Positions 9,321-55,046 of a stretch of DNA of 55,684 nt are shown here, piece after piece. Origin of the DNA: a virus. Taxonomy: Duplodnaviria; Caudoviricetes. The stretch covers positions 1 through 55,684 of the IMG/VR virus record IMGVR_UViG_3300037991_000591; one strand, written 5' to 3'. Under the pieces are notes generated by a model. It saw only the letters and a program-made list of their open reading frames with translations. It searched no databases and was not told the origin of the DNA. The position numbers and the translations under genes are program-made. Each line of letters opens with the position of its first letter. Position 1 is the first letter of the stretch.

Positions 9321-12300
9321 TTATGGTTTTTTATAGTATTGTATTTTACCATCAGGTCTTTCTAATTGTATGTAATCAACACCGAGTTTACCACTTGGTT
9401 TACCTGAGTTAGGACCAGTTAACGGTACTCGCTTTGTAAAACCTATACTTTTCATTTTGCGAACATCAATAGAATATTTTTCTTTTATTCTAGCTTCTGT
9501 TGCTTCTTCTTTTTTAATAGTACTTTCTCTACCCCAATATGGTAAATCTAAATTCCAACCTGACCAACCTAATAGTAAAGCAACTCTTTGCCATGTCTTA
9601 GTTTCTTCATCAAAAGCTTGACCTATATTCATTGCTTTTCTAAGCACACGATCTAGCGGTAAGTTTGTACTTGCTGATATAATTTGAGAAATAGCTAAGT
9701 AAGCTGGATTATCTAAGCTCCAACCACGTTTTTTTATTTCGTCCATATTCCAGTCAAATGTTTTAGCTGCTGTTCTTAGTTTACGAACTTTAGAATCTAA
9801 TACTGGTGATATATCAAATACACTCCATACAACATCCCTGTATTGAGTGCTTTTCTTTTCAGATTCATCTGCTATTTTCATAGCTACATTTTTAACTGTA
9901 GAAACTATAGCTCCACCAAAACCAAGACCAAACAACAATGAGTCAAGCATACCGTTCGCTATGTTAGCTGCTTTATCTTTATCTTTTTCTTCTGGTTCAT
10001 CATCAAATGCTAAAGCAAATAAAGCTTGTTGTAAAGCGTTAAACACTAAGTTTTGTACAGCAACGTAGTACATTACACTAGATAAATTACTAAGATCACT
10101 TTCACGCTGAGTCATACCTGGTTTTGTACGTCTATTATAAAGATCTTGTATAGACTTTTTAGTTTTTCTATTATACTGCATCGTAACGTTTTGAAACGAA
10201 AGTATAACACGACCAGCTAAACTAGCTTGTTGTTGTGATATTCTACTTGGATTACTTGACTGTTGTGTTTCTTCTGCTATAGCATAGAAATCATCAAATG
10301 TTTTCGCGTCAGCTTCTTGCTCTGTATAGAGTTTACCAGTTTCAGGATTAACTCTATTTTGTAGCGATTGTTTTCTATTTATAAAAAATGTAGCACCACC
10401 CGTTGCAATAGCTACACTATCCATAACTCTTGTAATAGCAAAACCTTTATCAAGTATGTAGTTAATCATACCTTTTATACCACCTTGTCTACCTGCATCT
10501 GCAAGCTCTGCTTCATTTACATTTATTTTTAATCCATCACGTCTGTTTACTAGGTAATCAGAGTTTAATAGTTTCAATACTGTTGGAAAATAATCTTTAC
10601 TTGTAAACGCTTTAGCGGCGTTATATATATTATTATCACCCCAATTTATAAAATTTACATTAGATATTAACTGAAGTAGTCCAGATCTCATGTTTAAGAA
10701 CATAACTGCACCAACAGAACTGTTAAGCCAGTCCATCATTTCATTAACAATACGAGATCCACTACCAACAAATACTGGTCTATTACTACCAGTTTTCATT
10801 CTACGTAATGAATCAACTAATGATTCTCTAAATTTACTACCGTATATAGCTTCTATCTTATTTAAGTTTTCTTTAGAAAATATAATATCTACATTTTCGT
10901 TAAACTCAGTCATTAATTCTTTTCTATAAGTAGTATCTAATCCTTTTAATATATCTGTAGTTATATCACCTGCTAACCAATTAGCTCCTGGAGCTGGATA
11001 TTGTTTATTTTTTTGAACTAATATTACGTTGTCAGCAAAAGGTTTTAATTCTAAATCTGATTCAACAGCTGCAACCAAAGCGTCTATATCTCTTTTGGAC
11101 ATACCTGGTATTTCCATACCCTGTTTATTCCACATGTAAACTCTAATTGCTTGAGATTTACTATAAGGACCAACGCCTATTTCTTCCATTAAAGGATTTT
11201 TACCTCGTTTACTTTTAAGAGTTGGGAAAGCTTCTCTCAATGCAGCGAAATCATTTGCTACAGTTACTTTAGAAGATAATAATTCTTGCTCTGCTTTATT
11301 ATAAGGATCCATTAAGTTTTCTTTAATAAACTGAGCGTGTTTATTACCTTGTTTACCTTTACCCATAAAAGCATACATTAATCCCATGAAATCATCAGCC
11401 GATGGTGTAATAGTAAATTGATTTATAAATCTTTTAAATACACCTTTATCTTTTTGTTTACCTTCTAATCTTGCTCTAGCGTCAGAGTATTTTTTAAAAT
11501 CTTCTTTACCAGTAACTTCTTCTATTTGTTTATTAAACTCTTTATTTAATCTAGTTGGTTTATCAGCAATAGCCTGTTGCACGTCTGATTTAACATCTAT
11601 TTGATCTAAAACGTTTTTTACTTGTTGAACGTTTAATAATGAGTCATCAGAAAAATAAAAATCATTATAACCTTCTGTAGCTTTTTCTAAAAACCAATCA
11701 GCTTTTGCTTGTGGATCACCGTTTCCTAAGCCAGTTATATTTGATATAGGTATATTTAAACCAATATTTTTAAGAAATATTTGTATTGCTTCTGCGGAAG
11801 CACCTGGTCTAGCTGTTACCACAAATATATCTTTTGGTCCAAATTTAGCTTGTTTTTTTCTAGCTTCACTAACCATAGGTCCTTCTAATGTAGATATGTC
11901 TACGTTTTCAAAATTGCTAAAATCAAACTCAGCGCCATTAGCAGTTAGTTCTTCTGCTTGTACAGCAAATTCACCTGCGGTTAATTCACCAGTTGTACCG
12001 TCTGGCATTGTGTATTTAACTTTTTCTTTTGTTAAAGCTAATGTATCGTCAAAATCAAAAGCACTTAATCCTTTTTCTTTTTTATCTACTTTTTGAGCAT
12101 CAACCCTAACATCTTGTGAGTTTATTAAAGTTTGTTTTATTTGAGTAGCGTTTTGTTTTTTACTAACAATATCTGCTGCAATTTCTACTGTTTTGTTTCT
12201 TGCTTGATCTTCTAGTTTTAATATATCTTGAACAGCTGGTGTTTGCATTAACTTTTCAAAAGACTTTGGACTGTCTAAATTAAAATTAGATTTTTCACCT

Positions 12301-15300
12301 GTAACTTTTATATTAGCTGGTACAAAAGCTAAAGTTGGAGTTATATTACCGTTTGCATCCGTTCCGGATCTTTTAAATCTAAAAACCATATCTACAGTAC
12401 CTTCAAGTTTAGGAACTGGCAAATTCAATGGATTTTCACCCATATAAAATAAACCTTGACCTTGTATATTTATATAGTATACAGGTGGTTGTTTTTTATT
12501 ATATAATTCAGATATAACATCAGCACTAACTGTTTCTTTAGTAGTAGTTGCTTTTTGTAACCCAGCTTTTTGAGCTTGCATCCAAGCTGTTTTTGGTATT
12601 TTTTTAGAACTAGTTGTTAAATCAACGCCTTGTTTTTTAATATCTTTAGCCCAAGATGTTAATTTAGGTTTAGATTTTTTAACAATATTATCCATAACTG
12701 ATTGAAGCTCTGGACTATATTTGTCGTATGTAAATTTAAAATTACCCGTGTTAAAATCATAAGTACCATTTACACTACTATATTGAGCATTGTCTAGTTT
12801 AGACTCACCTAAAAACTCAAAACCATTAAGTTCAAAAGCAAAATCAAAGTTTCTATACCTACCTTTTTCTGAAGGTTTTTTTAATATAACTTTTAAACCA
12901 GGAAATTTACTTTCTAACTCTATTGCGTTATTAATAATTAATTGTTCAAAAGCTTTATCTCTTTTTAAACCATCAGTTTCCATAACCTTTTCAACAAGAT
13001 ACTCAGTGTCTAACGTGTTGTTTTCTAGACTTTCTTGTGTTATTTCTTGCTCAAAAGTATTTTGTAAACTATCTGCTTCTTTTTTACTTAAACCTAAAGC
13101 TTTTCTTATACTATCAATACCAGCTTTTATAGACTTTACAATGTCTTTTGTTTTGCTATAAGTATCTTTAATTATATTTAAACCGCTTTTTATTGCTTTA
13201 GCTACTTGATTAACCGGTAAACCAGCGTATAAAGTCCCAGCTTGATCTTGTATAAATGAATCTACATTATCTATAGCTTCTTGTAATGTTTGCTCTACAA
13301 TATCCTCTACAACATCTAGTGAAACATCTTCTTTAACCCTCTGATCAGCATCGGCTTGGAATTGATCCATAAATTGGTCAGCATTTAAATCAGAACCTTT
13401 TAATTCTAAAACATCATTAAGCTTATTCATAAAGTCAGCATCAGCTTTCATAGCTTGAACTTCTTCTACAACAGCACCTTCAGCTAATATACTAAACAAA
13501 GATTGTGATCTTTTTTCATTAGCTTTAAAATAATCTTTTATTTCTTGTAATTTTTCTGGTGTAGTTTTAGGTATTCTAAAAACTTGTTTTTTAAAGTCGG
13601 TACGCTTACCATCTTTAATTTGTTTAGTAGGTGTTCTACCAATTTCTTCAATACCAAATAATTTACCAAACCTACCTTTAATAGTAGCTAGCGGTAATGA
13701 GTTTATAAAGTCTTGATTGATAACATCGTCTACAAATTGATTATATTGTGGTGAACCAAACCTACCTATTGCACCTTTGATTACGTTTCTAATTTCTTTT
13801 TGCTGAGTCTTTTTTATAATATCTTTTGCTACTATATCTGGACTAACACCTTTATCGTTAATTGATCTTATTATTTCATCTTTAACTTTAGCGTTTTGAG
13901 TTTCTCTTACTTCAGGTGTGAGTTTTTCTGCAACAACTTCTAGTTGTGATGGATATATTTTTGCTCTACCAGTTTCTTGAGGTGTAACATCTATATCAAC
14001 TTCTTCAGCTACAACCTCTCTAGCTTCAGGTCTGTCTAAAGTAGTTGCATCTTTTTGGCCAATGTATTTATCATATATACCTTGTGCTTTTGGAGCAATG
14101 TTAGCAGTTACAAATGTAGAAAAAGATCCTTTATCAGGTGACCATCTATCCATTATACCTGCAAACTCTTTATTTATTTCAGCTATAGCATCTTCTCTAG
14201 CTATGTCACCTTTACGAGTATCAAACTTAATTGCAGCTAAACCTATTTTATTGTATTGATCTAATAAAGCTTCTATATCTACAGCAGAAGGATCTTGCTG
14301 ATATTGAGTAGCTAATTCATCTGCTTTAGGTGATGATTTTCTAGTTGGTAAAATACTCATACCTACCACATTAGCTCTTTCTGTTTCTACATCGGCTACT
14401 AGTTCACCTAATCTACTATTTATTTCGTTTACTCTATCAGTATCTTTTGTTGTTAAAGCAGAATCATCAACTTGTTTTATTTTTTGTTGTAATTTGTTTT
14501 TTTCAATTAACAAAGAAGCGGCTTCAACATTTTCGTTCAAACCTAAAGGTTTTAATTGTTGAGTAGCTTGAGTTACATCTCTAAAGTTTTCTTGTATATT
14601 ATTAGCTTGTTCTTGATTTATTTTACCTAATTCTAAATCTTTAGTAACTTGTTGGTCTAATATTGTTTTAGCTTTTGGTGTTTGTGCTATTTTTAATTCT
14701 TCTAAACCACTAATTGGTTTTGATAAATCTACAGGTGTAGAATAAACCTCTGTAATATTATTAACGTTAAAATCGGGATTTATTTTTGCAACACTTTTGT
14801 TTATTTTATTAATAGCTAGTGCTTCTTGTATACCGTTTTTAAACTGCATTACATTTATAGGCCCGGCATATGTTGTCCCACCACCAACACCCTGTATGAA
14901 AGCGTCGTTAACTCCTTCAAACGGATCTTTACCGTTTATCATGTTTTGAGTTATTTGAGTTGCAACTTCTTCTATACCTTCACCTAGTGCACCTGCTGGA
15001 GCTCCTGCTTTTTTAAGAGCTTGTTCATACATTTCAATTAATCCGTTTCTAAATACTTTTGCTCCTTGTTGTTTTCCCTCTTTTAATAATATGTCTTTAT
15101 ATACTTTACCTAAAGTCCCACTACCAATAGCAGAAAAAACTGTTTCAGCTCCTGCTAAACCTATTGCTTTAGCTGTTAAATCAAATTCACTAGCACCTGG
15201 ATTTTCTTCTCTTAATCTTTCAAGTTCAGGTCCTAAAAACATAGGGGTTGAACCAGCGGCTAATTTAGGTATACTTGTACTAGCTCCACCCGCCATCATA

Positions 15301-16097
15301 CCTATGCTTACTGGAGCGCTTTCTGCTAAGCCACTTCCTAATTGTTTAAAACCATCTGACCAATTACCTTTTTTAAAATTTTCATAAATACCTTCAGTGT
15401 CGTAATTTTCATTATTCCAAATAGCTTGTTCTTTGCTTAGTTTTTCAGTTTCTTTTTGATAAAACTCTAATAAAGGATTTGTTATACCAAATTCTTCTTT
15501 AAATTTTTTAGAACTAGCCTCTGCTGATTTAGGTAAAACACCGGCTTTTACTAATAAATTTTGAGGCATAGAAAATATATCATAAAAACTTTCACCTAAA
15601 CTAAACATCATTTCACCTAATGTTGTACTACCTTTAGCTAAATCTACAGTTGCAAGCTTTTCTAAATAAGATTTTTTAGCTATTTTATCTTTTTCTATTT
15701 GTTCTTTATCTTGCAAGCTTCTTAAAGCTGTGTTATGATCCTCAATAGATTTATTCAACTTAGTTAAAGTATCATTATACATTTTAATTCTATTAGGAGA
15801 ATCCATAGCATCCATTTCCATATCTCCTCCAGATATTTGAATTAAATCAGTTTCTAGTTTATTTATATTGTTTTGAGAGTTTTTAAAATCAAATTCTTCT
15901 ACATCTATTTCAGGTTCTATAGGCTCTGTAGCTGAAGCAATAGTTAAAGGTATAGGTTTTTCTTCTACAACTTCTTCAACTTCCTCTTCAACTTGTGGTT
16001 GAGGATTATTTTTCTTCCATTCCTCTACTTTAGTATATATCTCTTCTTGAGATAAATTCTGATTCTGTAAAGAAATAACGTATTCTTGTAGAGTCAT
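9321..16097 (-). CDS. Giant (2258 aa) putative internal virion/ejection polyvalent protein with sigma region-2-like, PD-(D/E)XK-like and HAD domains
   Basis: Lies after the tail genes where podoviral ejection proteins sit. Motifs: EDAIAE...DRWSPDKGSFSTF; FEQ...FDF...GESK; AFDFDDTL/VTAR/K/SDD. Confidence 0.7.
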   Translation of the reverse strand: MTLQEYVISLQNQNLSQEEIYTKVEEWKKNNPQPQVEEEVEEVVEEKPIPLTIASATEPIEPEIDVEEFDFKNSQNNINKLETDLIQISGGDMEMDAMDSPNRIKMYNDTLTKLNKSIEDHNTALRSLQDKEQIEKDKIAKKSYLEKLATVDLAKGSTTLGEMMFSLGESFYDIFSMPQNLLVKAGVLPKSAEASSKKFKEEFGITNPLLEFYQKETEKLSKEQAIWNNENYDTEGIYENFKKGNWSDGFKQLGSGLAESAPVSIGMMAGGASTSIPKLAAGSTPMFLGPELERLREENPGASEFDLTAKAIGLAGAETVFSAIGSGTLGKVYKDILLKEGKQQGAKVFRNGLIEMYEQALKKAGAPAGALGEGIEEVATQITQNMINGKDPFEGVNDAFIQGVGGGTTYAGPINVMQFKNGIQEALAINKINKSVAKINPDFNVNNITEVYSTPVDLSKPISGLEELKIAQTPKAKTILDQQVTKDLELGKINQEQANNIQENFRDVTQATQQLKPLGLNENVEAASLLIEKNKLQQKIKQVDDSALTTKDTDRVNEINSRLGELVADVETERANVVGMSILPTRKSSPKADELATQYQQDPSAVDIEALLDQYNKIGLAAIKFDTRKGDIAREDAIAEINKEFAGIMDRWSPDKGSFSTFVTANIAPKAQGIYDKYIGQKDATTLDRPEAREVVAEEVDIDVTPQETGRAKIYPSQLEVVAEKLTPEVRETQNAKVKDEIIRSINDKGVSPDIVAKDIIKKTQQKEIRNVIKGAIGRFGSPQYNQFVDDVINQDFINSLPLATIKGRFGKLFGIEEIGRTPTKQIKDGKRTDFKKQVFRIPKTTPEKLQEIKDYFKANEKRSQSLFSILAEGAVVEEVQAMKADADFMNKLNDVLELKGSDLNADQFMDQFQADADQRVKEDVSLDVVEDIVEQTLQEAIDNVDSFIQDQAGTLYAGLPVNQVAKAIKSGLNIIKDTYSKTKDIVKSIKAGIDSIRKALGLSKKEADSLQNTFEQEITQESLENNTLDTEYLVEKVMETDGLKRDKAFEQLIINNAIELESKFPGLKVILKKPSEKGRYRNFDFAFELNGFEFLGESKLDNAQYSSVNGTYDFNTGNFKFTYDKYSPELQSVMDNIVKKSKPKLTSWAKDIKKQGVDLTTSSKKIPKTAWMQAQKAGLQKATTTKETVSADVISELYNKKQPPVYYINIQGQGLFYMGENPLNLPVPKLEGTVDMVFRFKRSGTDANGNITPTLAFVPANIKVTGEKSNFNLDSPKSFEKLMQTPAVQDILKLEDQARNKTVEIAADIVSKKQNATQIKQTLINSQDVRVDAQKVDKKEKGLSAFDFDDTLALTKEKVKYTMPDGTTGELTAGEFAVQAEELTANGAEFDFSNFENVDISTLEGPMVSEARKKQAKFGPKDIFVVTARPGASAEAIQIFLKNIGLNIPISNITGLGNGDPQAKADWFLEKATEGYNDFYFSDDSLLNVQQVKNVLDQIDVKSDVQQAIADKPTRLNKEFNKQIEEVTGKEDFKKYSDARARLEGKQKDKGVFKRFINQFTITPSADDFMGLMYAFMGKGKQGNKHAQFIKENLMDPYNKAEQELLSSKVTVANDFAALREAFPTLKSKRGKNPLMEEIGVGPYSKSQAIRVYMWNKQGMEIPGMSKRDIDALVAAVESDLELKPFADNVILVQKNKQYPAPGANWLAGDITTDILKGLDTTYRKELMTEFNENVDIIFSKENLNKIEAIYGSKFRESLVDSLRRMKTGSNRPVFVGSGSRIVNEMMDWLNSSVGAVMFLNMRSGLLQLISNVNFINWGDNNIYNAAKAFTSKDYFPTVLKLLNSDYLVNRRDGLKINVNEAELADAGRQGGIKGMINYILDKGFAITRVMDSVAIATGGATFFINRKQSLQNRVNPETGKLYTEQEADAKTFDDFYAIAEETQQSSNPSRISQQQASLAGRVILSFQNVTMQYNRKTKKSIQDLYNRRTKPGMTQRESDLSNLSSVMYYVAVQNLVFNALQQALFALAFDDEPEEKDKDKAANIANGMLDSLLFGLGFGGAIVSTVKNVAMKIADESEKKSTQYRDVVWSVFDISPVLDSKVRKLRTAAKTFDWNMDEIKKRGWSLDNPAYLAISQIISASTNLPLDRVLRKAMNIGQAFDEETKTWQRVALLLGWSGWNLDLPYWGRESTIKKEEATEARIKEKYSIDVRKMKSIGFTKRVPLTGPNSGKPSGKLGVDYIQLERPDGKIQYYKKP

Positions 16098-17892: not shown

Positions 17893-19383
17893 TTAATATC
17901 CATTGTTTGAATCAAATTTTGCTCCTACTGAAAATAATACTTTTGCACCACCAAGGTTTGTTACATTATCAGTTGAAAAAGTTGCTGTAGTATAATAACC
18001 TTTTATACCACTTATCGCGTCTCCAAATATTATTTCACCACTACTTGGAGCTGAGTTGTTTATTACATTTGCTACGTAAGCGTTTTCTTTTCTATTAAAC
18101 CCAGCGTAATATCTTGGTAATGCTGGATCACTAGTTCCTAAAGTTCCAACGTAGTTTGCTCTTGTAACAGCACCACCACCAACTGGATTAAATACGTATT
18201 CACCACCATAATAACTTAGTATAGATGTTATAGTGTCATTATTATTTTGATAAGTACTAGTTGAAGGGTTTACATCTTCGCCTGTAGCTGTTGAAATTAA
18301 AGATCTTACTTCCCAACCATTGCTTCCTTCGTAACTTATTGTACTAAAAGTTTTAGATACTAATGGTTCGGGATTAAATATAACTGTTATAGTACTTGCA
18401 AATGGAGTTGCAGATCCATAGAAAACACCTCTTAAAACAGTTGGATCATAATGTTTATATAAACCTGTAGAATTAGTACTATAGAAATTGTTTCTAATAC
18501 TCATCATTTGATCTGGTCTATAATCAAACAAGCTAGTCCAACCTTGAACACCTTCATCATAAGTAACAGTATTGAAATTTGGAGTAGATGTGTATAAATC
18601 ACTTTGTTGAGTAGATAAAACATATTGGTCATTGTAAATATCCCAACCACCTATAGCAAAACCAGAACTACCACCTAAATCTAAGTTGTTTAACTCATCT
18701 CTAAAAAAGTCTCTCATGCCTAATTGTGATATTTCAATTATGCTATTACCTCTTAAAGATAAAACTACATTATTGTTTTTATCTGTAAAATATTTATTAT
18801 TACCGTATACAGCAAAGCTTTCTGGATTTTTACTAATACCATATTTACCTGGTATTGGTTGTATAACACCTATAACTAAATTGCTAGATGTAACAGCACC
18901 TCCACCTTCCGCAGAATATATAGCGTCTTTATCTATTAAAGCTCTACTAATTTTACTTTCTTGAAATACAAATAGATTTGTATCTTCTGCATATAGTTTT
19001 TGTATTGAACCATTTGCTGGATCTGCTGCTTTTTCAATATCATCAGCTGTTGAAAATACATTAGTATTGTTTATCCCCGTTCGTGAATTAAATATACCAG
19101 AATATATTAACGCATTAAATCTTTTGTAACCAGCGGGTTCTGCTTCTACTAAATAAGCTTTTGCTCCATAATCTACAGATGTATTATTAAAACCTCCTCT
19201 AATTCTAGATTCTTCTAATACATAATCATTTTCATCTGGACTACCGATAACTGTATTAGGATATGATCCATTTAAAGAAGATGGTATTCCAAAAGAACCA
19301 TTCCATATAGGATTGTCGCCTCCATCACTCACCTTCTTTAATATAAAAGAGTTAAAATATTTTATTTCAATAGTTGCACCCAT
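17893..19383 (-). CDS. Tail structural protein (stabilisation/nozzle-like)
   Basis: Beta-rich; YGISKNPESFA and GGWD motifs; follows the large tail protein. Confidence 0.6.
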   Translation of the reverse strand: MGATIEIKYFNSFILKKVSDGGDNPIWNGSFGIPSSLNGSYPNTVIGSPDENDYVLEESRIRGGFNNTSVDYGAKAYLVEAEPAGYKRFNALIYSGIFNSRTGINNTNVFSTADDIEKAADPANGSIQKLYAEDTNLFVFQESKISRALIDKDAIYSAEGGGAVTSSNLVIGVIQPIPGKYGISKNPESFAVYGNNKYFTDKNNNVVLSLRGNSIIEISQLGMRDFFRDELNNLDLGGSSGFAIGGWDIYNDQYVLSTQQSDLYTSTPNFNTVTYDEGVQGWTSLFDYRPDQMMSIRNNFYSTNSTGLYKHYDPTVLRGVFYGSATPFASTITVIFNPEPLVSKTFSTISYEGSNGWEVRSLISTATGEDVNPSTSTYQNNNDTITSILSYYGGEYVFNPVGGGAVTRANYVGTLGTSDPALPRYYAGFNRKENAYVANVINNSAPSSGEIIFGDAISGIKGYYTTATFSTDNVTNLGGAKVLFSVGAKFDSNNGY

Positions 19384-19387
19384 ATTT

Positions 19388-19415
19388 TATGATTACATGT
19401 TTTATATTATTTCTA
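19388..19415 (-). promoter_or_regulatory. Putative late promoter
   Basis: TAGAAA-N13-GTAATCATA, immediately upstream of ATG 19383. Confidence 0.45.
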
Positions 19416-22400
19416 CTGCATAAGCAGATATGTCTTCAGCTACAAATGTTCCAAGACCACTACCAGCCCCACAATCATTACCTGCAAAAGGAGGTTGAGC
19501 CAAATATAAAGCTTGGGCTGCAGCAAAACTAACTGCTGAAAAATACAAAGCGTTACCTTGTCCACCACCACTAGCTGGATTAGCATTAGTTTTATCTATA
19601 GTTATAGTTGTAGTACCATTAGATAGTTGTTGAGTGGCATCATCTGGGTTTGTACATGGTATTGCTCCATAATAATAGTATCCATTTTCAGCACCTATTG
19701 AAGATCCTGATATTTCAAATCTAACCACAGATTGTTCGTTGCAGTTATCTGGACTATCGCAAGTATATGTTGTTTTTTCATAACTCGCAACATTACCAGC
19801 TCTGTTTAAATTAACTTCATAAACTGAATTTATAGATTCACCAGCATCTGCAAATTGTAACGTTATATCATAATCAGCTACATCAATTGTAGGACTTGCT
19901 ATAAATAATTTTGTTTGTATTTCACTACCAACTATATTGTTTGTTATAGTAAAATAATCGCTTAGTAATTCACCTTCTTCTAAAGCACTACCATTTTTAG
20001 TTATATTTGTTATTGCAACATTATAATCTAATGTTCTTAAAGTTGTGTTGTTAGCGCCATTATGAGACTCAATAGTTGTTAAAGCTGTTGTAATTGTTCT
20101 ATTTGTTGTCACGGGATTAGTACCTGCAGTTGTTATTTGAGGTTGAACATTACCTGGACCAACCGCGTTATTAGTTGCTGAAACAAAAACCTCAGATGTA
20201 ACACCACTATAAGTAGTTACAATTTTAAAAATAAAATTAAACAACCTAGCTTCTTCGTTATTACCAAAATAAACATTTGTGTAATAAGTAGGAGTAGTTT
20301 CTATATCAAAAGTAACAACGCTTACACCTGGTGTTCCTGTTCTAGTTATCGTAAAATAATCACTTACATCATTTCCAGGTATATTATTATCTGTAACACT
20401 GTCTATAGTTACATCTAACTGTGTTAAATTAGGGTCTACGGGGTCACTTATATCTACGCCGAATTGATCAACCACTTTAAACTCATTTGCTAAAATACTA
20501 TTTGTTGTTGCTAACCCTTCTGTCCAACCAGCTACATCAAAAGAGTCTATACCTGCGCCACCAGAACTTTCAGATAATATTAAAGAATTTAAATCTGATA
20601 TTAAACCACTGGTTGTAGTTTCCCAATATATATCTAAACTAGATACTGTAGGAGTTGTTTCGTATACACTTAAATATTGTAAACCAGGAACAGATAAACT
20701 ACCTTGATTACTCGCAGCGTATCCAGGTGCAAAAGTTAATATATCATCAGCCGACAAAGTAACAGCTTCTGATAATATTAAAGTAGGTGAACCAGCTGCA
20801 TTAGCTATATATATACCTTCTTTTAAACCAGGACCAGAAACAATCATGTCGTTAGCTGGTGTGCCTTCAAGATTTTTTAAAGTAACACTGGTATTATTGT
20901 TGACTGGCGTGTTAACTAATCCACTGGCTACAGCATAGTTTGTAGAAGCTATTTGTCCTATTTGATTTTCTGTACTTATTCTTGATATTAAAGGATTAGA
21001 TTTATCTAAATAAAACTGTGGAAAATAATTTGGTCGAGGTGGATCAGTAGGATCGTAATCAAATAAATCTGCAAGTGTAGATATTGTTGAAACTGTATCT
21101 GCTATTCTACCTGGGTTATATTGAGTATTTGCTTTACCTATATTAGTTGCAAAAATAAAACCAGCTGTACTTGTATCATAGTTTATACTTGTAGCAGTAT
21201 TTTGAACTCTACCAAATAATCTAACTGAACTTCTATACTGTTTTTGATCAGGACCAACTTCAGTTAAATCTCTAGGTACTTTATTTATATTATCATTTAT
21301 TAATACAGCATGTGAAGTACTTGTTACTTCTTTTGTAATATCTTCTGGATAAGCAGCCATTATACCAGGTAGATAAACATTATAATATTCTTGCTCTGTT
21401 TGTTTAACCACTATTTTATATGAATACCAACCTAATGGATTATAATCAACACTACTAGTATCATCATTATATAAACCTGGTGAGTTAGCATAACCACCAC
21501 TTATAGGATTATTAAATCTAATTTTTAAAGAATCACCTGGAAAACTTTCTTGAGTTGCGCTGTCTTCTAAATACGCAGAATAAACCGTATCTCCAATAAA
21601 AGTTGAAGAGCCAACGGTAACAGATTCTTTATTGTTTGATAATATAACAGAAGATTGTCTACCATATCTATCAGATAAAACTACACCTACTTGGTAGTTT
21701 CTATTTTGTTTTAAAGAAGAATTAGGATATTCTACTTTACTAGTACTATCAGTTTCTGTTCCAGCATCTTGAAAAACTAAAGTTTGACCAGCTACTAAAA
21801 CTACACTTTTATTAAGTGTAATATTAGGCGCAGAATAACTAGTTACTTGACCTAATGGAAAACCATTGTAATCACCTGAGTATACAGTTGATGATTGCCA
21901 ACCGTACACCACGTCTCCAACACTAGGTGTTTCAGGACCTACTAATGTTATTGGAATATTATTACCCGCGGGATAAGTAGCAGTAGCTGTAGATGTAGCT
22001 TTAGCGTTTATTACTTGAAAATTATTTTTATCACTAGCTTGTACATTATAATCTAAAGAACTTGGTGGTGTGTGTTTGTTTTCAAAATTACCATATATAA
22101 CTCTATTTCCAGATATTTCTTGAGCCAATGCTCTAACAGGTGTTTTATCAAAAACCCTTAACAACTCACTGTCTGGTAATGTTCTAAATGGTTTTATAGA
22201 GTTGTATTTATATTCATAAACGGATGGATTACCTATATAAACGAATTGACTAGCAGCTGCTGGTGGAGATGCTTGGTTTTTACTACAAGTTAATACTCCT
22301 GTAGCAGAGTCATAACTATCAACAAAAGAAAAATTAGCAACGCCTTTTCCACCTATTAATTCACCTGTTTTAACTGTTCCTATTACATTTATTAAGTTTA

Positions 22401-23721
22401 ATTTATTTGGCGCTGTAACTGGAGTAGATCCTAATTGCGCTCTTGCAGATGAATTAACTATATCTTCTATAGGTATTGTATCTATAACTCTAACGGCTAT
22501 ACCATCTGATTCTTTATATAATATATCTATTTCTTTAATTTTTAATTTATCTTGTAAACTAAATTTATTAAAAGGTAAAGGAATTATAAGTTTTATTTCA
22601 TCAACTTTATTTTCTACAAATTCTACTATGGTAGATCTATAAGCAGCTGCTTGGTCATCTTTATCTATAGCAGGAGTTTCTTGTCTTACATACATGAAAT
22701 AACCATCTTGCTTTGGTATAAAGGCAACTTGAGTAAATGGAGCCATTATAGAGTATTCATTATCATCAAATCTCCATCTATAACTAAATCTTACAAACTT
22801 ATCTTCTAAATAAGCTGGATCACCAGCAAATAAACCATCATAATAAGGGTTAGCATCTATTATTATTTCTGCACCAGCTGGAGTAGCTGGAGTACCCGCA
22901 CATGTTATTACACCTGTACTAGCATTATAAGAACTAACCGTCGCGGGTGTATCAACAATATTAGTTGTGCTAGTTGCTATATAGCTAATACTTTGCCCAG
23001 CAACAGGGTTTACACCTTTAGCTGTAGAAGGTGTAATTGTTATACTTGACCCAACAGAAGCACCTGGAGCTGTAGCTGTAAAACCAATAGGAGTAGTTTT
23101 ACTAGTTACATCTTTCATCGTGCTTTCATACTTATCCGTGCTTATAGCTGTAAAAGCGTTTTCATCTCTTTGTTGCCAAAGCTGTATGGCTTGATAAGGA
23201 TTGTATTTTGCTACGGATATTTGATCTTCTGTAGTATAATATCTATTATTATCAACAGCTCTTTCAATATTTATTTTTCTAGGTTGATTGCGGTTATCTG
23301 TCCAAAACAATAAATTTTCTACTATATTGACACCATGTATAGGATATAATTGAGAAAAATTTAAAAAAGGTGAAAGATAAATTAAATCCACATAAGTGTC
23401 TGTTAAAACGTTATATTGATATATATGGTGGTTTGATCCAACTCCAGTTGGAACATAATCTTCTGTTTTATTATCAGTTACAAAAAGATAAATAAAATTA
23501 TTAGTATCATCAGTAACCCAACCAATACACTTGCTATTTGCGGGAAAAGTTAAACCTGTTATTTTATTACCTAAAACGTTTTCCAGCTCACCTACATCTG
23601 GGCCTTCAGATTTACTAACCTGAACATTTCTTGCATCTCTATATTCTCCGTTTGGTACTAAACGAGCATCTAGGTCTTTGTTTAATTTACCTTTAACAAA
23701 GGTGTTAACAACTTTTGCCAT
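19402..23721 (-). CDS. Large tail stabilisation/nozzle protein
   Basis: N-terminal GKLNKDLDARLVPNGEYRDARNV, LLFWTDNRNQPRKIN and GNRVIYGN, as in Bacteroidota podophage tail proteins. Confidence 0.7.
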   Translation of the reverse strand: MAKVVNTFVKGKLNKDLDARLVPNGEYRDARNVQVSKSEGPDVGELENVLGNKITGLTFPANSKCIGWVTDDTNNFIYLFVTDNKTEDYVPTGVGSNHHIYQYNVLTDTYVDLIYLSPFLNFSQLYPIHGVNIVENLLFWTDNRNQPRKINIERAVDNNRYYTTEDQISVAKYNPYQAIQLWQQRDENAFTAISTDKYESTMKDVTSKTTPIGFTATAPGASVGSSITITPSTAKGVNPVAGQSISYIATSTTNIVDTPATVSSYNASTGVITCAGTPATPAGAEIIIDANPYYDGLFAGDPAYLEDKFVRFSYRWRFDDNEYSIMAPFTQVAFIPKQDGYFMYVRQETPAIDKDDQAAAYRSTIVEFVENKVDEIKLIIPLPFNKFSLQDKLKIKEIDILYKESDGIAVRVIDTIPIEDIVNSSARAQLGSTPVTAPNKLNLINVIGTVKTGELIGGKGVANFSFVDSYDSATGVLTCSKNQASPPAAASQFVYIGNPSVYEYKYNSIKPFRTLPDSELLRVFDKTPVRALAQEISGNRVIYGNFENKHTPPSSLDYNVQASDKNNFQVINAKATSTATATYPAGNNIPITLVGPETPSVGDVVYGWQSSTVYSGDYNGFPLGQVTSYSAPNITLNKSVVLVAGQTLVFQDAGTETDSTSKVEYPNSSLKQNRNYQVGVVLSDRYGRQSSVILSNNKESVTVGSSTFIGDTVYSAYLEDSATQESFPGDSLKIRFNNPISGGYANSPGLYNDDTSSVDYNPLGWYSYKIVVKQTEQEYYNVYLPGIMAAYPEDITKEVTSTSHAVLINDNINKVPRDLTEVGPDQKQYRSSVRLFGRVQNTATSINYDTSTAGFIFATNIGKANTQYNPGRIADTVSTISTLADLFDYDPTDPPRPNYFPQFYLDKSNPLISRISTENQIGQIASTNYAVASGLVNTPVNNNTSVTLKNLEGTPANDMIVSGPGLKEGIYIANAAGSPTLILSEAVTLSADDILTFAPGYAASNQGSLSVPGLQYLSVYETTPTVSSLDIYWETTTSGLISDLNSLILSESSGGAGIDSFDVAGWTEGLATTNSILANEFKVVDQFGVDISDPVDPNLTQLDVTIDSVTDNNIPGNDVSDYFTITRTGTPGVSVVTFDIETTPTYYTNVYFGNNEEARLFNFIFKIVTTYSGVTSEVFVSATNNAVGPGNVQPQITTAGTNPVTTNRTITTALTTIESHNGANNTTLRTLDYNVAITNITKNGSALEEGELLSDYFTITNNIVGSEIQTKLFIASPTIDVADYDITLQFADAGESINSVYEVNLNRAGNVASYEKTTYTCDSPDNCNEQSVVRFEISGSSIGAENGYYYYGAIPCTNPDDATQQLSNGTTTITIDKTNANPASGGGQGNALYFSAVSFAAAQALYLAQPPFAGNDCGAGSGLGTFVAEDISAYAVEII

Positions 23722-29405: not shown

Positions 29406-31784
29406 TTACACCATTGGTGGTGTAGACTCTTGTTCAAAATTTATAGGAAGACCATCGTTTTTCCTTTGTGAAATCATTTCACTTTGTTGTGTTCCCTCCA
29501 TTTTAATTCTTTTATCTTTTCTATCTTCTTTTTCGTTTTCTATTTGACTTCTAGATTGAACTTCTAAGTTTTTAAGCTCCATATCATTTTGATGTTGTTG
29601 CATCATTTTTTGTTGATCTAACTGAGCTTGTAACTGCATACGATCTTTTTCAAATTCACTCTTAGCTTTTTCGTATTCTACATTAGCACCAGATATAGCT
29701 TGTTGTTTTTGTACTTCTGCCATAGCTGTTTTTTCTGCAGTTTCTGCTTGTGCTGCTGCTTGAGCTTTTATATTAGCTTGTTGATTAGCTTGATCTTGTT
29801 TAGCTTTTTGCTTACGTTTTACTTTTAACATTTGATTAGCTAATTTAAGATTTTTAATTTGTCTTAAATCAATAGCATCTTCAACATCAATATTTTTAGC
29901 TTGTAAAGCTATTTGTATATTTGCTTCTAATTGTTGTTTTTCTTCTTCATCTGGTTCTAATTCTAAGAATATACCAAAATCATGTAGATTTAAATTAACA
30001 ATTTCTTGTAATGTTTTAATATTAAAAGTTGATATAGAGTTTTGTAAAGCAGCTTTTGTAAGCGGAAACTCTAAAGCGTCAGCTACTTTTAAGCTAATAT
30101 TTTCTGCTAATTTAAGAGTTAAAAATAAACTAGACTGTACAATATGTCTTGTAGCTACATTAGATGCGTTAGCAGCTAACTTCTGCAACCCTACAAGCGT
30201 GTTGCGATCAGGTAAACTACCATCTCTAGCTTCATTCAATCCTGTCACATCACGTATCATTTGTAAATAGTACTGATATGTACTTATTAACGCTTGTATC
30301 TTAGCTTGACCACTACCTGATTGTAATTCTTGTATTGGTACTTTACCAGGATTCATATCACCTTCTTGTGTAAGAGATCTACCAACAATACTACCAGTTT
30401 GGAAATACATATTTAATGCTTCTGCTGGGTTGTAATTTGTACCGTTACCAAGATCAACCTCAGCAAGCCCATCCATATCTAAATATACACCATCTGGAAC
30501 TACACGTGATATTACTTGTTGTAGTTTTAAATGAGTTAATTGAATCATATCAGCAAATCCAATACACTTACTAACTATAGACTCAATTCTACCTTTATAA
30601 ATTCTAGGCGCGCATATCGCGTAATTCATTTTAACCTTAGTGGTATCAGCTAATGGTCTAGACATGTTTTCAGCTAGTTCCCATTTTAACATTGTATTAG
30701 TTCCTAATACTTTAGCACCACTATATAAAACCTCTATAGATCTTGATACTCTTTCAAAGTTATCATTTTCTGGTGGATTAAATGTATCTGGCTTTTCAAT
30801 AGCCTTCATTAATCCTTGATCTGTTTGCTTTATTTTAAATACTTGGTTGTGATATGTTTTGTAATCAAAATATAAAACTTGTACTGTATTAGCATCATAA
30901 TCACCCCAACCTGTAATATAAGATCTATTACCAGGCATTGCTTGTATTCTTTTTAATTCTTCTTCAGTTATACCTGGAAACTCTTTTTTAAGTTCTGGTA
31001 TTGTAATAGCTTTTAATTCACCAACGTAGTATATATCTTCAAAATTTGGATCCTCTGTATAAGAATAAACCATATAAGCTGGATCTACGTAATCTACAGT
31101 AATACCTTCAGCCGTATTAAAATTAGTTTTAGCAGCTGCAATACCACAAACTGTTAAATCCATATTTAATCTACGCTTAGTTAAATCATATTTATTTTGA
31201 GCAAGTACAGATGATATAGCTTCTTCTTCTGCTATTTCTACACTTTGCTTATATGATAATTGCATATGTAGCTCTAGTTCTTCTGGCGTTTCTGGAACAA
31301 CTGTAGTACTAGGTGTTTGATATAAATCAATACCTAAAGTTTGTTTTAAGTTATCTAGATATTCTTGAGATAACATGTCTTCATAAATTTTTGAAGCGTA
31401 CTCAGTTCTTTTCTTTATAGAGTTAGGATCTTGAGCATAAGCTTTTATATCATAAGTTTTAGAAGATATACCATTTACAACTATATCAACAAATTTAGAT
31501 AATATAGGTACAGGTTTCCAGTCTAAATTTAAATAAGATAAATCACCGTTTATAGCTAATTCATCTTTATACTTTTGTATTGACTGCTCACCTCTAGCAT
31601 ATAATCTTAACTGATGAAAATTATTCCAGTTAGTTAAGTATCTATTACCACTAGTCCTACCTTGTGAAAACCACTCTTGTTCAATAGCTTGAGCAACTTG
31701 CATTCCATACTCTAAACTAGCTTTCTCTGCATCGCTCACTACTTGGCTTGGAAAAGGACTATTAGTATTACTATATATATTCAT
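29406..31784 (-). CDS. Portal protein
   Basis: 792 aa directly after terL; PILSKFVDIVV, DVTGLNEARDG and a Gln-rich C-terminal coiled-coil barrel. Confidence 0.85.
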   Translation of the reverse strand: MNIYSNTNSPFPSQVVSDAEKASLEYGMQVAQAIEQEWFSQGRTSGNRYLTNWNNFHQLRLYARGEQSIQKYKDELAINGDLSYLNLDWKPVPILSKFVDIVVNGISSKTYDIKAYAQDPNSIKKRTEYASKIYEDMLSQEYLDNLKQTLGIDLYQTPSTTVVPETPEELELHMQLSYKQSVEIAEEEAISSVLAQNKYDLTKRRLNMDLTVCGIAAAKTNFNTAEGITVDYVDPAYMVYSYTEDPNFEDIYYVGELKAITIPELKKEFPGITEEELKRIQAMPGNRSYITGWGDYDANTVQVLYFDYKTYHNQVFKIKQTDQGLMKAIEKPDTFNPPENDNFERVSRSIEVLYSGAKVLGTNTMLKWELAENMSRPLADTTKVKMNYAICAPRIYKGRIESIVSKCIGFADMIQLTHLKLQQVISRVVPDGVYLDMDGLAEVDLGNGTNYNPAEALNMYFQTGSIVGRSLTQEGDMNPGKVPIQELQSGSGQAKIQALISTYQYYLQMIRDVTGLNEARDGSLPDRNTLVGLQKLAANASNVATRHIVQSSLFLTLKLAENISLKVADALEFPLTKAALQNSISTFNIKTLQEIVNLNLHDFGIFLELEPDEEEKQQLEANIQIALQAKNIDVEDAIDLRQIKNLKLANQMLKVKRKQKAKQDQANQQANIKAQAAAQAETAEKTAMAEVQKQQAISGANVEYEKAKSEFEKDRMQLQAQLDQQKMMQQHQNDMELKNLEVQSRSQIENEKEDRKDKRIKMEGTQQSEMISQRKNDGLPINFEQESTPPMV

Positions 31785-52689: not shown

Positions 52690-52720
52690 CGAAAGTTAAT
52701 ACAAAAGTATTTAGATAATA
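52690..52720 (+). promoter_or_regulatory. Putative early promoter, copy 1
   Basis: CGAAAGTTAATACAAAAGTATTTAGATAATA; ATG at 52740. Confidence 0.75.
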
Positions 52721-52739
52721 TATATAAATAAATAACACT

Positions 52740-52883
52740 ATGAATTACATTTTAGAAACTTCAATTGACAACATCATTAATCAAATTAAAAAAGAATATC
52801 CATACAATAACACAATGTGTCGTGATAAATATAATGAATCAATACAAAATTACTTATATGAATCAATTACTATTAATTTATAA
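52740..52883 (+). CDS. Small early protein (47 aa)
   Basis: Hand-translated MNYILETSIDNIINQIKKEYPY...TINL*. Confidence 0.5.
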   Translation: MNYILETSIDNIINQIKKEYPYNNTMCRDKYNESIQNYLYESITINL

Positions 52884-52916
52884 TATGACATATTGTCACA
52901 CTATGACATATTGTCC
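52884..52916. promoter_or_regulatory. Tandem palindromic operator-like sites TGACA-N3-TGTC(A/C)
   Basis: TATGACATATTGTC occurs twice, 18 bp apart; a third site is at 55003-55015. Confidence 0.55.
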
Positions 52917-52959
52917 AATAACATACTAATACTTTTATTAACTTAACAAATACACACTT

Positions 52960-53058
52960 ATGAAAAACTTACTTAACATTATTATCAAATCATTTCTTAC
53001 AACATTAACTTCAATTTTTATAATTGGTTTTATATTACTTATGAATCACTTAATATAA
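52960..53058 (+). CDS. Small single-TM peptide (32 aa)
   Basis: MKNLLNIIIKSFLTTLTSIFIIGFILLMNHLI*. Confidence 0.5.
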   Translation: MKNLLNIIIKSFLTTLTSIFIIGFILLMNHLI

Positions 53059-53060
53059 AT

Positions 53061-53091
53061 CGAAACTTAATACTAATAAACTTAGATAATA
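53061..53091 (+). promoter_or_regulatory. Putative early promoter, copy 2
   Basis: CGAAACTTAATACTAATAAACTTAGATAATA. Confidence 0.75.
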
Positions 53092-53133
53092 TAAACGTAA
53101 CAACTTAATACTTAATAACTTAAATAAAATAAT

Positions 53134-53367
53134 ATGAACACACTTAATTCTAAAAGATTTGTTATTCGCAAATCACTAATCGGTAAAAACACAACTATAA
53201 ATGTTGAATTTAAAAATGGAAAACAAGTCACTTACAATCACGATAAAGTATATGAAATCATGAAAGATACGTTGAATTCACTTCCGTGCTACATAAAATA
53301 CAATTCTTACACTAGTTCAACTAATGTTCCTGTGAAAGCTAGACAAGTAGTAGAACACATAAATTAA
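53134..53367 (+). CDS. Early hypothetical protein
   Basis: 77-aa ORF after the promoter motif, with an A-rich leader. Confidence 0.7.
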   Translation: MNTLNSKRFVIRKSLIGKNTTINVEFKNGKQVTYNHDKVYEIMKDTLNSLPCYIKYNSYTSSTNVPVKARQVVEHIN

Positions 53368-53372
53368 TACTT

Positions 53373-53594
53373 ATGAGAATAATAAAATACATAAATCCAC
53401 ACTTTCCAAATCATGACTGGTTTAGATGTACAATAGACAATGAAACTTACTCTTCACCTAGTCGTGATAATGTGGAGTTGTGGCGAGATGACAAGTTAAT
53501 CAATGCTGATTACTATAAAGAACTAAAAGAAATTAGTGATAAAGCAATGGCTCAAATGTACGAGAATAACCACAATAATTGGACAGGTGATTAA
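53373..53594 (+). CDS. Early hypothetical protein
   Basis: 73-aa ORF. Confidence 0.7.
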   Translation: MRIIKYINPHFPNHDWFRCTIDNETYSSPSRDNVELWRDDKLINADYYKELKEISDKAMAQMYENNHNNWTGD

Positions 53595-53595
53595 T

Positions 53596-53626
53596 CGAAA
53601 CATAATACAAATAACTCTAGATAATA
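53596..53626 (+). promoter_or_regulatory. Putative early promoter, copy 3
   Basis: CGAAACATAATACAAATAACTCTAGATAATA. Confidence 0.75.
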
Positions 53627-53641
53627 TATATAAATAAATAT

Positions 53642-53833
53642 ATGAATACAATTAAATTTACTTCTAAGACTACACTAAAACTAAATGGTGTTAACTACAA
53701 AGGCTATAATGTCGGTGAACTTCCTAACTCATTTGGTTTTCTATACAATGAAGACAAAGAATCATATGGTAAATCTCACTGGTTTAACTACAAAGGATTA
53801 ACATTTATTGAAAAAACTGAACTACCATGGTAA
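53642..53833 (+). CDS. Early hypothetical protein
   Basis: 63-aa ORF 15 nt after the motif. Confidence 0.7.
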   Translation: MNTIKFTSKTTLKLNGVNYKGYNVGELPNSFGFLYNEDKESYGKSHWFNYKGLTFIEKTELPW

Positions 53834-54015
53834 CTAATATGAAAGAATTATGCGAGTATAGTAGACAAAAAAGACTATCTCGCAAAGCACAACACGTAGA
53901 AATACTTAAAATCTATGGTGAGTGTAGAGGTATGGGCGACAAGAACTATAAACTTCCGCAAAAGTCTTCGTTCCCTAAACAATATAAAGCGGCTTATAAT
54001 AAAATATGGCGATGA
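53827..54015 (+). CDS. Early basic hypothetical protein
   Basis: 62 aa; the start could be 53839. Confidence 0.6.
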   Translation: MVTNMKELCEYSRQKRLSRKAQHVEILKIYGECRGMGDKNYKLPQKSSFPKQYKAAYNKIWR

Positions 54016-54194
54016 TAACATTAGATAGATATAAACAAAACTTAAAAATATTAGGCGATGATGTGTACTCTTATAGTACTCATGTAGCAACAATAGAATA
54101 TCCTAACTTAAAACAACATGGTTGGTGGAGTGTAACAACTCAAAAACATATTAACTATGTAGCAAAAGAGTATAACTTAAATTTAATAAAATGA
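54012..54194 (+). CDS. Early hypothetical protein
   Basis: ATGA-coupled; YSYSTHVA...SVTTQKHINY. Confidence 0.7.
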   Translation: MITLDRYKQNLKILGDDVYSYSTHVATIEYPNLKQHGWWSVTTQKHINYVAKEYNLNLIK

Positions 54195-54391
54195 AAATAA
54201 ATAAAAATCTAAAAAGAGTATTAGTCACTTTAGCTCTTATAACTGTAGGATTTACTGCGGGTAAACAACAAGGTGAGCAAGAAATATTAAATAGATGGGA
54301 AGATAGATGGTTCGACTCTGATTGGTATGACACTAGATCTATTGAAGATTTCTTATATGATAAAGATTATTCAATAGAACTTGGTGAGTAA
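54191..54391 (+). CDS. Early membrane-anchored small protein
   Basis: N-terminal hydrophobic VLVTLALITVGFTAG and an acidic/aromatic tail. Confidence 0.65.
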   Translation: MKINKNLKRVLVTLALITVGFTAGKQQGEQEILNRWEDRWFDSDWYDTRSIEDFLYDKDYSIELGE

Positions 54392-54392
54392 T

Positions 54393-54423
54393 CGAAACAT
54401 AATACGAATAAAGTCAGATAATA
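54393..54423 (+). promoter_or_regulatory. Putative early promoter, copy 4
   Basis: CGAAACATAATACGAATAAAGTCAGATAATA. Confidence 0.75.
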
Positions 54424-54443
54424 TAATAAACAAATAAATAATT

Positions 54444-54632
54444 ATGTATTGTAGATGTGGAAACACTGTTCACCCAGTAAGATTAGAATTAGGTTATAAA
54501 ACGTGTGTTAGTTGTTCAACAACTCAAACTTACTCGTACGTCCCTATTATCACCCATAAAACTGGTAATACTATACAAATAGTATCGCAAGAGGTTTCCG
54601 CATCTGTACATAAAGCATGGAGGCGTAAATAA
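54444..54632 (+). CDS. DksA/TraR-type C4 zinc-finger protein
   Basis: YCRCGNTVHPVRLELGYKTCVSC resembles C..CG..I...RL......C..C. Confidence 0.65.
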   Translation: MYCRCGNTVHPVRLELGYKTCVSCSTTQTYSYVPIITHKTGNTIQIVSQEVSASVHKAWRRK

Positions 54633-54633
54633 T

Positions 54634-54822
54634 ATGGATAGTAGAAAAGCATACGAATTAATGAAAGAAGAATATATTGATAGAGAAGCAGCTGAGCTTT
54701 GTAATCAAATAGAAAAATCACTAGAACGCATGATAACATATGATAATGGTATGTTAGATGATATAGTATTTAATAAAATTAAAGCACAAGCCATCAAATT
54801 ATTAAAAGAATGGCACTTGTAA
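54634..54822 (+). CDS. Early hypothetical protein
   Basis: 62-aa helical ORF. Confidence 0.65.
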   Translation: MDSRKAYELMKEEYIDREAAELCNQIEKSLERMITYDNGMLDDIVFNKIKAQAIKLLKEWHL

Positions 54823-55002
54823 TCTAGTAGACGAGTAGGTTAATTAGGATGGTTGGAAGGTGCTGCTGTTAGCGGCAGACTATCACGTAACTAAATTGCT
54901 AAGTAGATTACTGATAACTAGGTTTGGATACATCACACGTTTAAGTACGGAGATAAGACTTACTGACGAGTAAAAGAGGTTCGATTCCTTTTCTAGTTAC
55001 TA
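54819..55002 (+). ncRNA. Putative structured ncRNA with a tRNA-like 3' domain
   Basis: GC-richer intergenic segment with nested stems, T-arm AGAGG-TTCGATT-CCTTT and a 7-bp acceptor-like stem AACTAGG/TCTAGTT; no canonical D or anticodon arm. Confidence 0.5.
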
Positions 55003-55015
55003 TGACAAAATGTCA
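55003..55015. promoter_or_regulatory. Palindromic operator-like site TGACA-AAA-TGTCA
   Basis: Directly abuts early promoter copy 5. Confidence 0.5.
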
Positions 55016-55046
55016 CGAAACATAATACGAATAAAGAAAGATAATA
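55016..55046 (+). promoter_or_regulatory. Putative early promoter, copy 5
   Basis: CGAAACATAATACGAATAAAGAAAGATAATA. Confidence 0.75.

Follow-up and report, generated by a model that had tools for sequence, protein, structure and literature searches.

How does a tailed phage obtain its first transcript when no RNA polymerase can be recognized among its genes? Phages are known to do so by using the host holoenzyme or by injecting a complete RNA polymerase, as N4, crAss-like and jumbo phages do. The question is raised here by IMG/VR virus record IMGVR_UViG_3300037991_000591 (Duplodnaviria; Caudoviricetes), a linear contig of 32.7% G+C and an estimated 88% completeness, which we analysed over its whole length of 55,684 nucleotides (the window). 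A minus-strand open reading frame (ORF) of 2258 amino acids (aa), P0001, holds a stretch that a first-pass annotation had read as resembling region 2 of sigma-70 (sigma2), embedded in a giant and probably injected virion protein; the annotation proposed that this module redirects host RNA polymerase to the early promoters of the phage. The peptide quoted for that proposal is real. It runs from IEALLDQ (from aa 608; position 14276) through EDAIAEINKEF (aa 635) and KGSFSTFV (aa 656) to TTLDRP, which ends at aa 690 (position 14028), all within this one ORF and within positions 13980-14340, where the plus strand is full of stops and noncoding. The features concerned are as follows.

9321..16097, minus strand: giant ORF P0001, 2258 aa, putative virion cargo or ejection protein carrying the sigma2-like domain (an ORF with 87 homologues)
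14028..14276, minus strand: the quoted peptide, aa 608-690 of the giant ORF (IEALLDQ...TTLDRP)
14001..14336, minus strand: sigma2-like domain, aa 588-699 of the giant ORF (AlphaFold model, VIA-align, profile A2 and hhalign)
13296..13991, minus strand: aa 703-934 of the giant ORF, a helical domain that has one long beta-hairpin and is co-conserved with the sigma2-like domain (model; no known fold)

The embedded sigma2-like domain

An AlphaFold (AF2) model of aa 591-944 of the giant ORF, built with 19 aligned sequences, had a mean pLDDT of 79.3. Its N-terminal part is a five-helix domain (model residues 1-89, block-mean pLDDT about 66-90), followed by a disordered, acidic linker of low confidence (model residues 90-120; aa about 680-710) and then by a second domain. 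When the model was compared with 48,161 representative chains in a wide VIA-align search, 26 of the first 30 rows were sigma factors, sigma/anti-sigma complexes or initiation complexes (Z 7.5-4.7), with 80-99 residues aligned and model residues 1-90 or beyond covered, which is the entire N-domain. The best row was SigB (8x6g_H; Z 7.5, rmsd 3.2, 88 residues aligned) and the second was a chain of the T4 gp45-dependent activation complex (7d7d_F; Z 7.3, 88 aligned), which we take to be gp55. SigK (Z 7.0), CnrH (6.6) and region 2 of SigC (6.5) were also found, with SigI6, SigW, RpoS, sigma-32, sigma-E, SigA domain 2 and sigma-28 in lower rows. The four remaining rows were the non-sigma chains 1nxh_B and 3les_A (a scaffold), together with two ambiguous rows, chain 7s01_A of the AR9 holoenzyme and chain 9n9q_C of an RNA-guided transcription complex, neither of which was counted as sigma. 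It is the uniformity of this list, not its scores, that carries the structural weight.

Sequence profiles led to the same family. Among the 87 homologues of the giant ORF, aa 587-931 form a conserved module, and we built one profile of the 354-aa module (A1) and one of the sigma2-like domain alone (A2; 21 sequences from this contig and from IMG/VR loci). Among PDB sequences, A2 reached the SigB chain of the best structural row (E 0.02), in a register identical to that of the structural alignment. Against 1.84 billion representative proteins it gave 144 matches at E<=0.001 (144 clusters at 50% identity), those listed being mostly longer than 1,000 aa; the small sigmas P0270, P0269, P0272 and P0273 were reached at E 1e-4 to 1e-3. 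Sixteen short matches were scanned with Pfam, where three matched Sigma70_r2 (PF04542; gathering cut-off 24 bits): P0270 at 50.2 bits and P0269 at 26.6, both over the cut-off, and P0273 at 18.5. P0245 matched ParA-type families and P0272 weak non-sigma families only, and the remaining 11 of the 16 had no Pfam match, at least one of them (P0268) being visibly a fragment of a giant. With the NCBIfam model TIGR02937 of the sigma-70 superfamily (cut-off 42.9 bits), P0272 scored 44.7 bits, over the cut-off, and P0270, P0273 and P0269 scored 41.4, 37.6 and 36.2. A word-indexed search found no close relatives of P0270.

In profile-profile alignment with hhalign, A2 gave 95.4% against P0270 and 91.4% against P0269, and a 73-sequence family alignment gave 96.1% against the four small sigmas. 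The order of signature residues is shared with these proteins as well: E-D-x-x-x-E...(F/Y/W)-D/S-P-x-K-G-x-F-S-T-(F/Y/W). The fold of the model and the remote profile homology to verified sigma factors agree with the first-pass annotation in that aa 588-699 are very probably a sigma2 domain by descent, of great divergence. On sequence grounds the domain appears nearest to the small sigma factors of extracytoplasmic function (ECF)-like type and lies outside the curated family boundary.

The embedded domain, with its 144 clusters, is widespread and no curiosity of one contig. For the giant family, 92 related loci of marine viromes were taken from IMG/VR, and the domain was detected in 79 of them: in 64 by a hidden Markov model iterated to convergence and in 15 more by blastp with a stretch of the type seen in relative G010. 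The 13 without detection include truncated loci. Conservation falls mainly on core hydrophobic positions and on (Y/F/W)-D-P and (L/F)-x-x-(Y/F)-(I/V). Regions 2.3-2.4 of sigma factors melt and recognize the -10 element through aromatic and basic residues; in 31 non-redundant sequences of the embedded domain, an aromatic position at aa 662 (Y or F in 55-90%) and a hydrophobic pattern are kept along with few polar positions. A region-2.2-like E-x-G-x-x-G-(I/L) survives in one clade, whose sequence is ...EIETGKRGILDLIKEYDPESGVPLAAYINKFLPARAIEA.... In the giant frame of G010 (2644 aa), Pfam Sigma70_r2 matches directly (E 4.4e-4, 16.1 bits), and the domain reads ...YSAEDMLQETQIAL...RNFN, followed by an insert of about 45 aa and then by LNGWINSQLRNK. 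A clade of giants has this more canonical sigma2 signature (YSAEDMLQET ... LNGWINSQLRNK), split by the insert; in the L086 giant ORF it lies at aa about 1153-1302 (G010:14583-14711).

The second domain, of about 230 aa and co-conserved with the sigma2-like domain, reached a pLDDT of 86.4 when aa 703-934 were modelled alone. Its best VIA Z was 4.3, without a sigma row; Foldseek gave no match at E<=0.001 and the ESM Atlas no usable match, and hhalign of this domain against the full-length small sigma P0272 gave 2.9%.

The giant protein and its gene order

All 87 homologues of the giant protein are giants of 1438-3300 aa from metagenomes, and the exact protein of this contig is present on 75 contigs, including one of 63,565 bases. 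The whole protein matched no Pfam or PHROG family, and NCBIfam gave only noise on its sub-fragments. What can be said of its delivery comes from its neighbours.

31785-34007, minus strand: large terminase, in the same operon as the giant ORF
29406-31784, minus strand: portal, in the same operon as the giant ORF
19402-23721 and 17893-19383, minus strand: two ORFs matching the crAss-like muzzle protein (PF25729 crAss_MUZ_C, 33.6 bits; phrog_14478 for both ORFs)

The long minus-strand operon runs from terminase and portal through several PHROG 'virion structural' proteins and the muzzle-like ORFs to two small ORFs and the giant ORF, with an endolysin gene farther along. Save for the two small ORFs, the giant gene therefore lies directly downstream of the muzzle genes on the same strand, which is the position of a cargo gene; in PhicrAss001, too, the cargo genes sit after the muzzle gene. 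By this position the giant is a candidate cargo protein, and we consider it a likely one. Mass spectrometry is reported to have found gp45, gp46, gp47, gp49 and gp50 in the virions of PhicrAss001, where they count as ejected cargo proteins (PMC10172136). The 'giant virion protein' of the first-pass annotation agrees with the place of the gene, and it is from gene order that we infer its presence in, and delivery from, the virion.

Giants also stand at the syntenic position in Elemovirus (gp18, L096:852-11936, 3694 aa, annotated 'structural protein') and in MW202828 (L094:741-12320, 3859 aa). Both are unrelated to P0001 in sequence, so that widely differing proteins occupy the cargo slot. The terminase shares 43% identity with its counterparts in Flavobacterium Elemovirus phages; Cellulophaga, Tenacibaculum and Maribacter phages match it as well (87 records), which makes a member of Flavobacteriia the probable host.

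As the first-pass annotation had stated, no RNA polymerase is visible in the window: no RNA polymerase family was found among the giant ORF and 38 other ORFs, and the motif D-[FYLIVM]-D-x-D occurs nowhere in P0001. A crAss-type virion RNA polymerase was considered for the giant and ruled out, as it has no DFDxD, the catalytic motif that such polymerases carry in a double-psi beta-barrel, and phmmer found no match between P0001 and PDB chains; the syntenic giants of Elemovirus and MW202828 lack DFDxD too. For comparison, gp66 of phi14:2 is reported to have DFDID at 1361 (10.1101/2020.03.07.982082). A search of five relatives for a T7-like polymerase (PF00940) found none and has little weight, since control genomes were equally silent. 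Elsewhere in the giant protein (11598-12080, minus strand, aa about 1340-1500), FDFDDTL at aa 1346 is followed by IFVVTARPG and FYFSDDS. These segments are strongly conserved in the family and look like HAD-phosphatase motifs I, II and IV of the DxDxT type; Pfam gave no confirmation, its sole match being DUF2608 (E 0.13).

Early-region motif and stand-alone sigma genes

The repeated early-region motif described in the first-pass annotation does exist. It has the form GAAACNTAATAC-N10-AGATAAT and occurs five times, against 0.23 copies expected from shuffles, none of 100 shuffles reaching five. The copies, at 52691, 53062, 53597, 54394 and 55017, are all on the plus strand and 12-43 nt upstream of the next ATG.

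52691..55045, plus strand: five candidate early promoters, GAAACNTAATAC-N10-AGATAAT (shuffle test, distance to ATG)

Two tandem copies of a 14-nt word, TATGACATATTGTC, lie at 52884-52897 and 52902-52915 (plus strand; spaced 18 nt), and a third copy (86%) lies at 55001-55014 (plus strand), just upstream of the fifth promoter-like motif; the word is partly palindromic and could be an operator. Upstream of the minus-strand genes, searches for a shared late-promoter motif and for the Bacteroidota TAnnTTTG gave nothing convincing.

In relatives, six copies of the early-region motif (with up to three mismatches) were found in each of G001, G002 and G003, and a variant, CAAACTAAATACGA...GGATAAT, in three copies in G005 and two in G006. 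G007 had one weak match, and G008, G009 and G010 had none.

The first-pass proposal also implied a phage with no other source of transcription specificity, and here the relatives speak against it. Each of the five near-complete relatives first searched (G001, G002, G003, G005 and G006) has a Sigma70_r2 match in a separate frame of 237-254 aa, over the Pfam cut-off in two of the five, and further stand-alone sigma frames were found in G007 (264 aa) and G008 (263 aa). In the first five, the gene lies about 2 kb past the last motif. That of G001 (L107:1402-2145) encodes 247 aa with regions 2 and 4 (TIGR02937, 53.4 bits). It shares the strand of the motif, the last copy of which precedes it by about 1.8 kb, and stands among genes of recombination/repair type. 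The stand-alone sigmas of G002, G003, G005 and G006 are 78%, 76%, 70% and 60% identical to that of G001. They are much better conserved than the embedded domain, for which G001 is 24%, 20% and 25% identical to G002, G003 and G006. The embedded domain was also considered as a copy of the phage's own stand-alone sigma, which was ruled out by hhalign (1.6% and 4.6%).

The contig end cuts its last ORF (55292-55684). In G003, a homologue of this ORF precedes the sigma gene, as placed by the PF04542 match, by about 1.6-2 kb; the contig therefore probably stops just short of its own stand-alone copy. Open frames run off both contig ends (55292-55684 and 1-528, plus strand). Being exactly 131 codons long, the terminal frame would run on from base 1 in frame 1, and there a MazG-like frame is open; this continuity may be a coincidence, the record being classed as linear and 88% complete.

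Because it brings a sigma, the phage family clearly works through the host core RNA polymerase. Its sigma gene comes after the motif cluster, so that these promoters must be fired by a factor already there at time zero, whether the host holoenzyme or a delivered factor. This need gives room for an injected sigma without requiring one.

Possible roles of the embedded module

Our best reading, held tentatively, is of a virion-delivered module that docks on the host core RNA polymerase. The giant protein would most likely travel inside the capsid and enter the cell together with the DNA or before it. Sigma2 domains, helical and comprising regions 1.2-2.4, bind core RNA polymerase at the clamp helices of its beta-prime subunit, and inside the cell the module would most likely dock there, tying the host polymerase to the entering genome. 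It may then start early transcription as a minimal sigma in the manner of T4 gp55, or hold the enzyme for the phage, and the stand-alone sigma, probably lost from the truncated contig, would run the later programme.

Several results weigh against this reading. Pfam Sigma70_r2 found the giant protein in one 401-aa sub-query only, at 11.5 bits (E 0.27) and below the cut-off, in a match that is correctly placed (aa 633-664 against profile positions 22-54); it gave no match in the 120-aa and 354-aa sub-queries, in any of 19 family members or in a six-frame search of the contig, and profile A1 found nothing among PDB sequences. The VIA-align scores are middling, as Z values below 8 (below about 13 for helical folds) can mean a common arrangement, and Foldseek returned no row at E<=0.001 from the PDB (both models) and BFVD, with sigma only among weak rows. 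Few surface positions are conserved, unlike the prediction for a fixed interface with polymerase and DNA. In complete sigma factors the helix-turn-helix of sigma4 binds the beta flap and reads the -35 element; VIA, Foldseek and hhalign found in the downstream domain neither sigma4 nor another recognizable part for reading -35, though a small embedded helix-turn-helix could be missed by them. As to delivery, no homologue of the giant protein was found among the cultured phages in the collection searched; it has one strongly hydrophobic segment only; and the syntenic giants of Elemovirus and MW202828 have no sigma2-like domain.

The remaining points concern promoter choice. The stand-alone sigma of the relatives would be an ordinary way to account for phage-specific promoters, and the motif is unvarying across G001, G002 and G003 despite embedded domains of 20-24% identity. 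The covariation of domain and motif offered as a check in the first-pass annotation was not seen; the stand-alone sigmas of these three genomes are 76-78% identical. That the motif stays constant over such different domains would be easier to understand if the host or the conserved stand-alone sigma recognized it than if the giant did. We therefore regard binding to the host core polymerase as the most likely activity of the embedded module, in itself an evenly balanced proposition, and its direction of the 29-nt motif as doubtful. From the first-pass proposal of an injected sigma that redirects RNA polymerase, a sigma2 module in a giant at the cargo position is retained; the lack of a detectable sigma4, the separate sigma in relatives and the absence of covariation do not favour the redirection itself.

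A fuller version of docking would be a cascade of two sigmas, in which the cargo sigma2 of these abundant marine phages, with a new partner domain replacing sigma4, captures host core polymerase at the mouth of the ejection channel, fires the early promoters at time zero and hands over to a conventional phage sigma made from the resulting transcripts. Taken as a whole, we think this somewhat unlikely.

Alternatively, the injected domain might act as a decoy that occupies the clamp-helix site, excludes host sigmas and shuts off host transcription until the stand-alone sigma takes over. A sigma2 fold without detectable sigma4, and a stand-alone sigma in relatives, speak for such a decoy, and the domain diverges fast, as an effector in an arms race would (clades share 20-25% identity in it and 70-78% in the stand-alone sigma); giant injected proteins often carry anti-host domains, according to two surveys (PMC5512222, PMC7824862). 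A decoy would, however, block the phage's own sigma too unless removed, and it gives no reason for the close co-conservation of the domain with its 230-aa partner; we judge it unlikely.

No better placed is the possibility that a sigma-derived fold has been repurposed for a role unrelated to RNA polymerase, holding single-stranded or terminal phage DNA in the capsid or during ejection, or serving as a structural spacer. Such a role would suit the conservation of mostly core positions, the sub-threshold Pfam score and a motif that does not covary with the domain, and sigma2 domains bind single-stranded DNA (3ugo_A, row 27 of the VIA-align search, is such a complex by its title). Yet (Y/F/W)-D-P...(L/F)-x-x-(Y/F)-(I/V), and in one clade E-x-G-x-x-G, are kept over at least four clades, suggesting selection beyond the fold, and this alternative also seems unlikely to us.

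That the giant, or a fragment of it, is not delivered at all and acts late in the cytoplasm as a T4 gp55-like late sigma is more improbable still. The gene does lie in the late structural operon, and the model matches 7d7d chain F at Z 7.3; a 2258-aa carrier would nevertheless be odd for a late sigma, the position matches that of crassvirus cargo genes, and no late-promoter motif was found. A chance resemblance of a generic helical bundle to sigma2, for which the middling Z values, the Foldseek result and the Pfam scores under threshold might be cited, is very improbable, given that among 1.84 billion proteins the profile reaches, at E<=0.001, sigmas that Pfam and NCBIfam confirm, that hhalign gives 91-96%, that Pfam matches a relative's giant directly and that SigB is aligned in a single register by structure and by sequence.

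A delivered docking module would have parallels among known systems. Small ECF-like sigma-70 factors (PF04542, TIGR02937) have the sigma2 fold and signature order in common with the embedded domain (profile-profile 91-96%) and are proteins of 160-250 aa, whereas here the domain is embedded in 2258 aa, below the Pfam gathering score and with no sigma4 helix-turn-helix found. T4 gp55, which we take to be 7d7d chain F, is likewise sigma2-like without sigma4; it is, however, small and free, is synthesized once infection has begun and acts together with gp33 and the sliding clamp, and nothing of that kind was identified here.

The virion RNA polymerases of crAss-like phi14:2 (gp66) and N4 (gp50) are giants encoded after tail or muzzle genes and ejected with the DNA, which frees early transcription from host specificity (10.1101/2020.03.07.982082, PMC10172136). 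The logic would be alike if the module is delivered, except that a specificity or docking module takes the place of an enzyme, with no DFDxD and no match to solved chains. Stand-alone phage sigmas, of the phiEco32 gp36 type (PMC8948821) or of 247-254 aa as in relatives G001-G006, belong to a common family with the embedded domain and use the host core polymerase; they differ in having sigma4 and show no specific relation to it that hhalign could detect (1.6% and 4.6%). Polyvalent or cargo proteins are giant, multidomain, part of the virion module and highly variable between related phages, as here. In the available text of the 2017 polyvalent-protein survey the word 'sigma' occurs zero times, so that by word search sigma is not among the domains it names (PMC5512222), and the corresponding text of a jumbo-phage survey has free phage sigma factors only (PMC7824862). 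A full-text literature search, with supplements and most subscription papers outside its scope, found no sigma domain described in a virion or injected protein.

An embedded sigma2 domain in a putative cargo giant combines two known kinds of element, the phage sigma factor and the injected transcription device. If truly ejected, it would be an intermediate solution, in which the phage brings the specificity or docking part and borrows the catalytic core of the host. The two-sigma cascade, if true, would never need a host sigma and would join the injected RNA polymerases, single-chain and multisubunit, as a third solution. The family also offers for study a natural minimal sigma2 module with a partner domain of no known fold, and a starting point for learning what the opaque giant cargo proteins do in podoviruses of Flavobacteriia.

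The window also encodes a GroEL-type chaperonin (44698-46254, minus strand; Cpn60_TCP1, 199.8 bits) and a protein of a GroES-like co-chaperonin PHROG (34215-34832, minus strand), and chaperonin and co-chaperonin genes are present in the Elemovirus and MW202828 relatives as well; such phage chaperonins might help to refold large cargo proteins.

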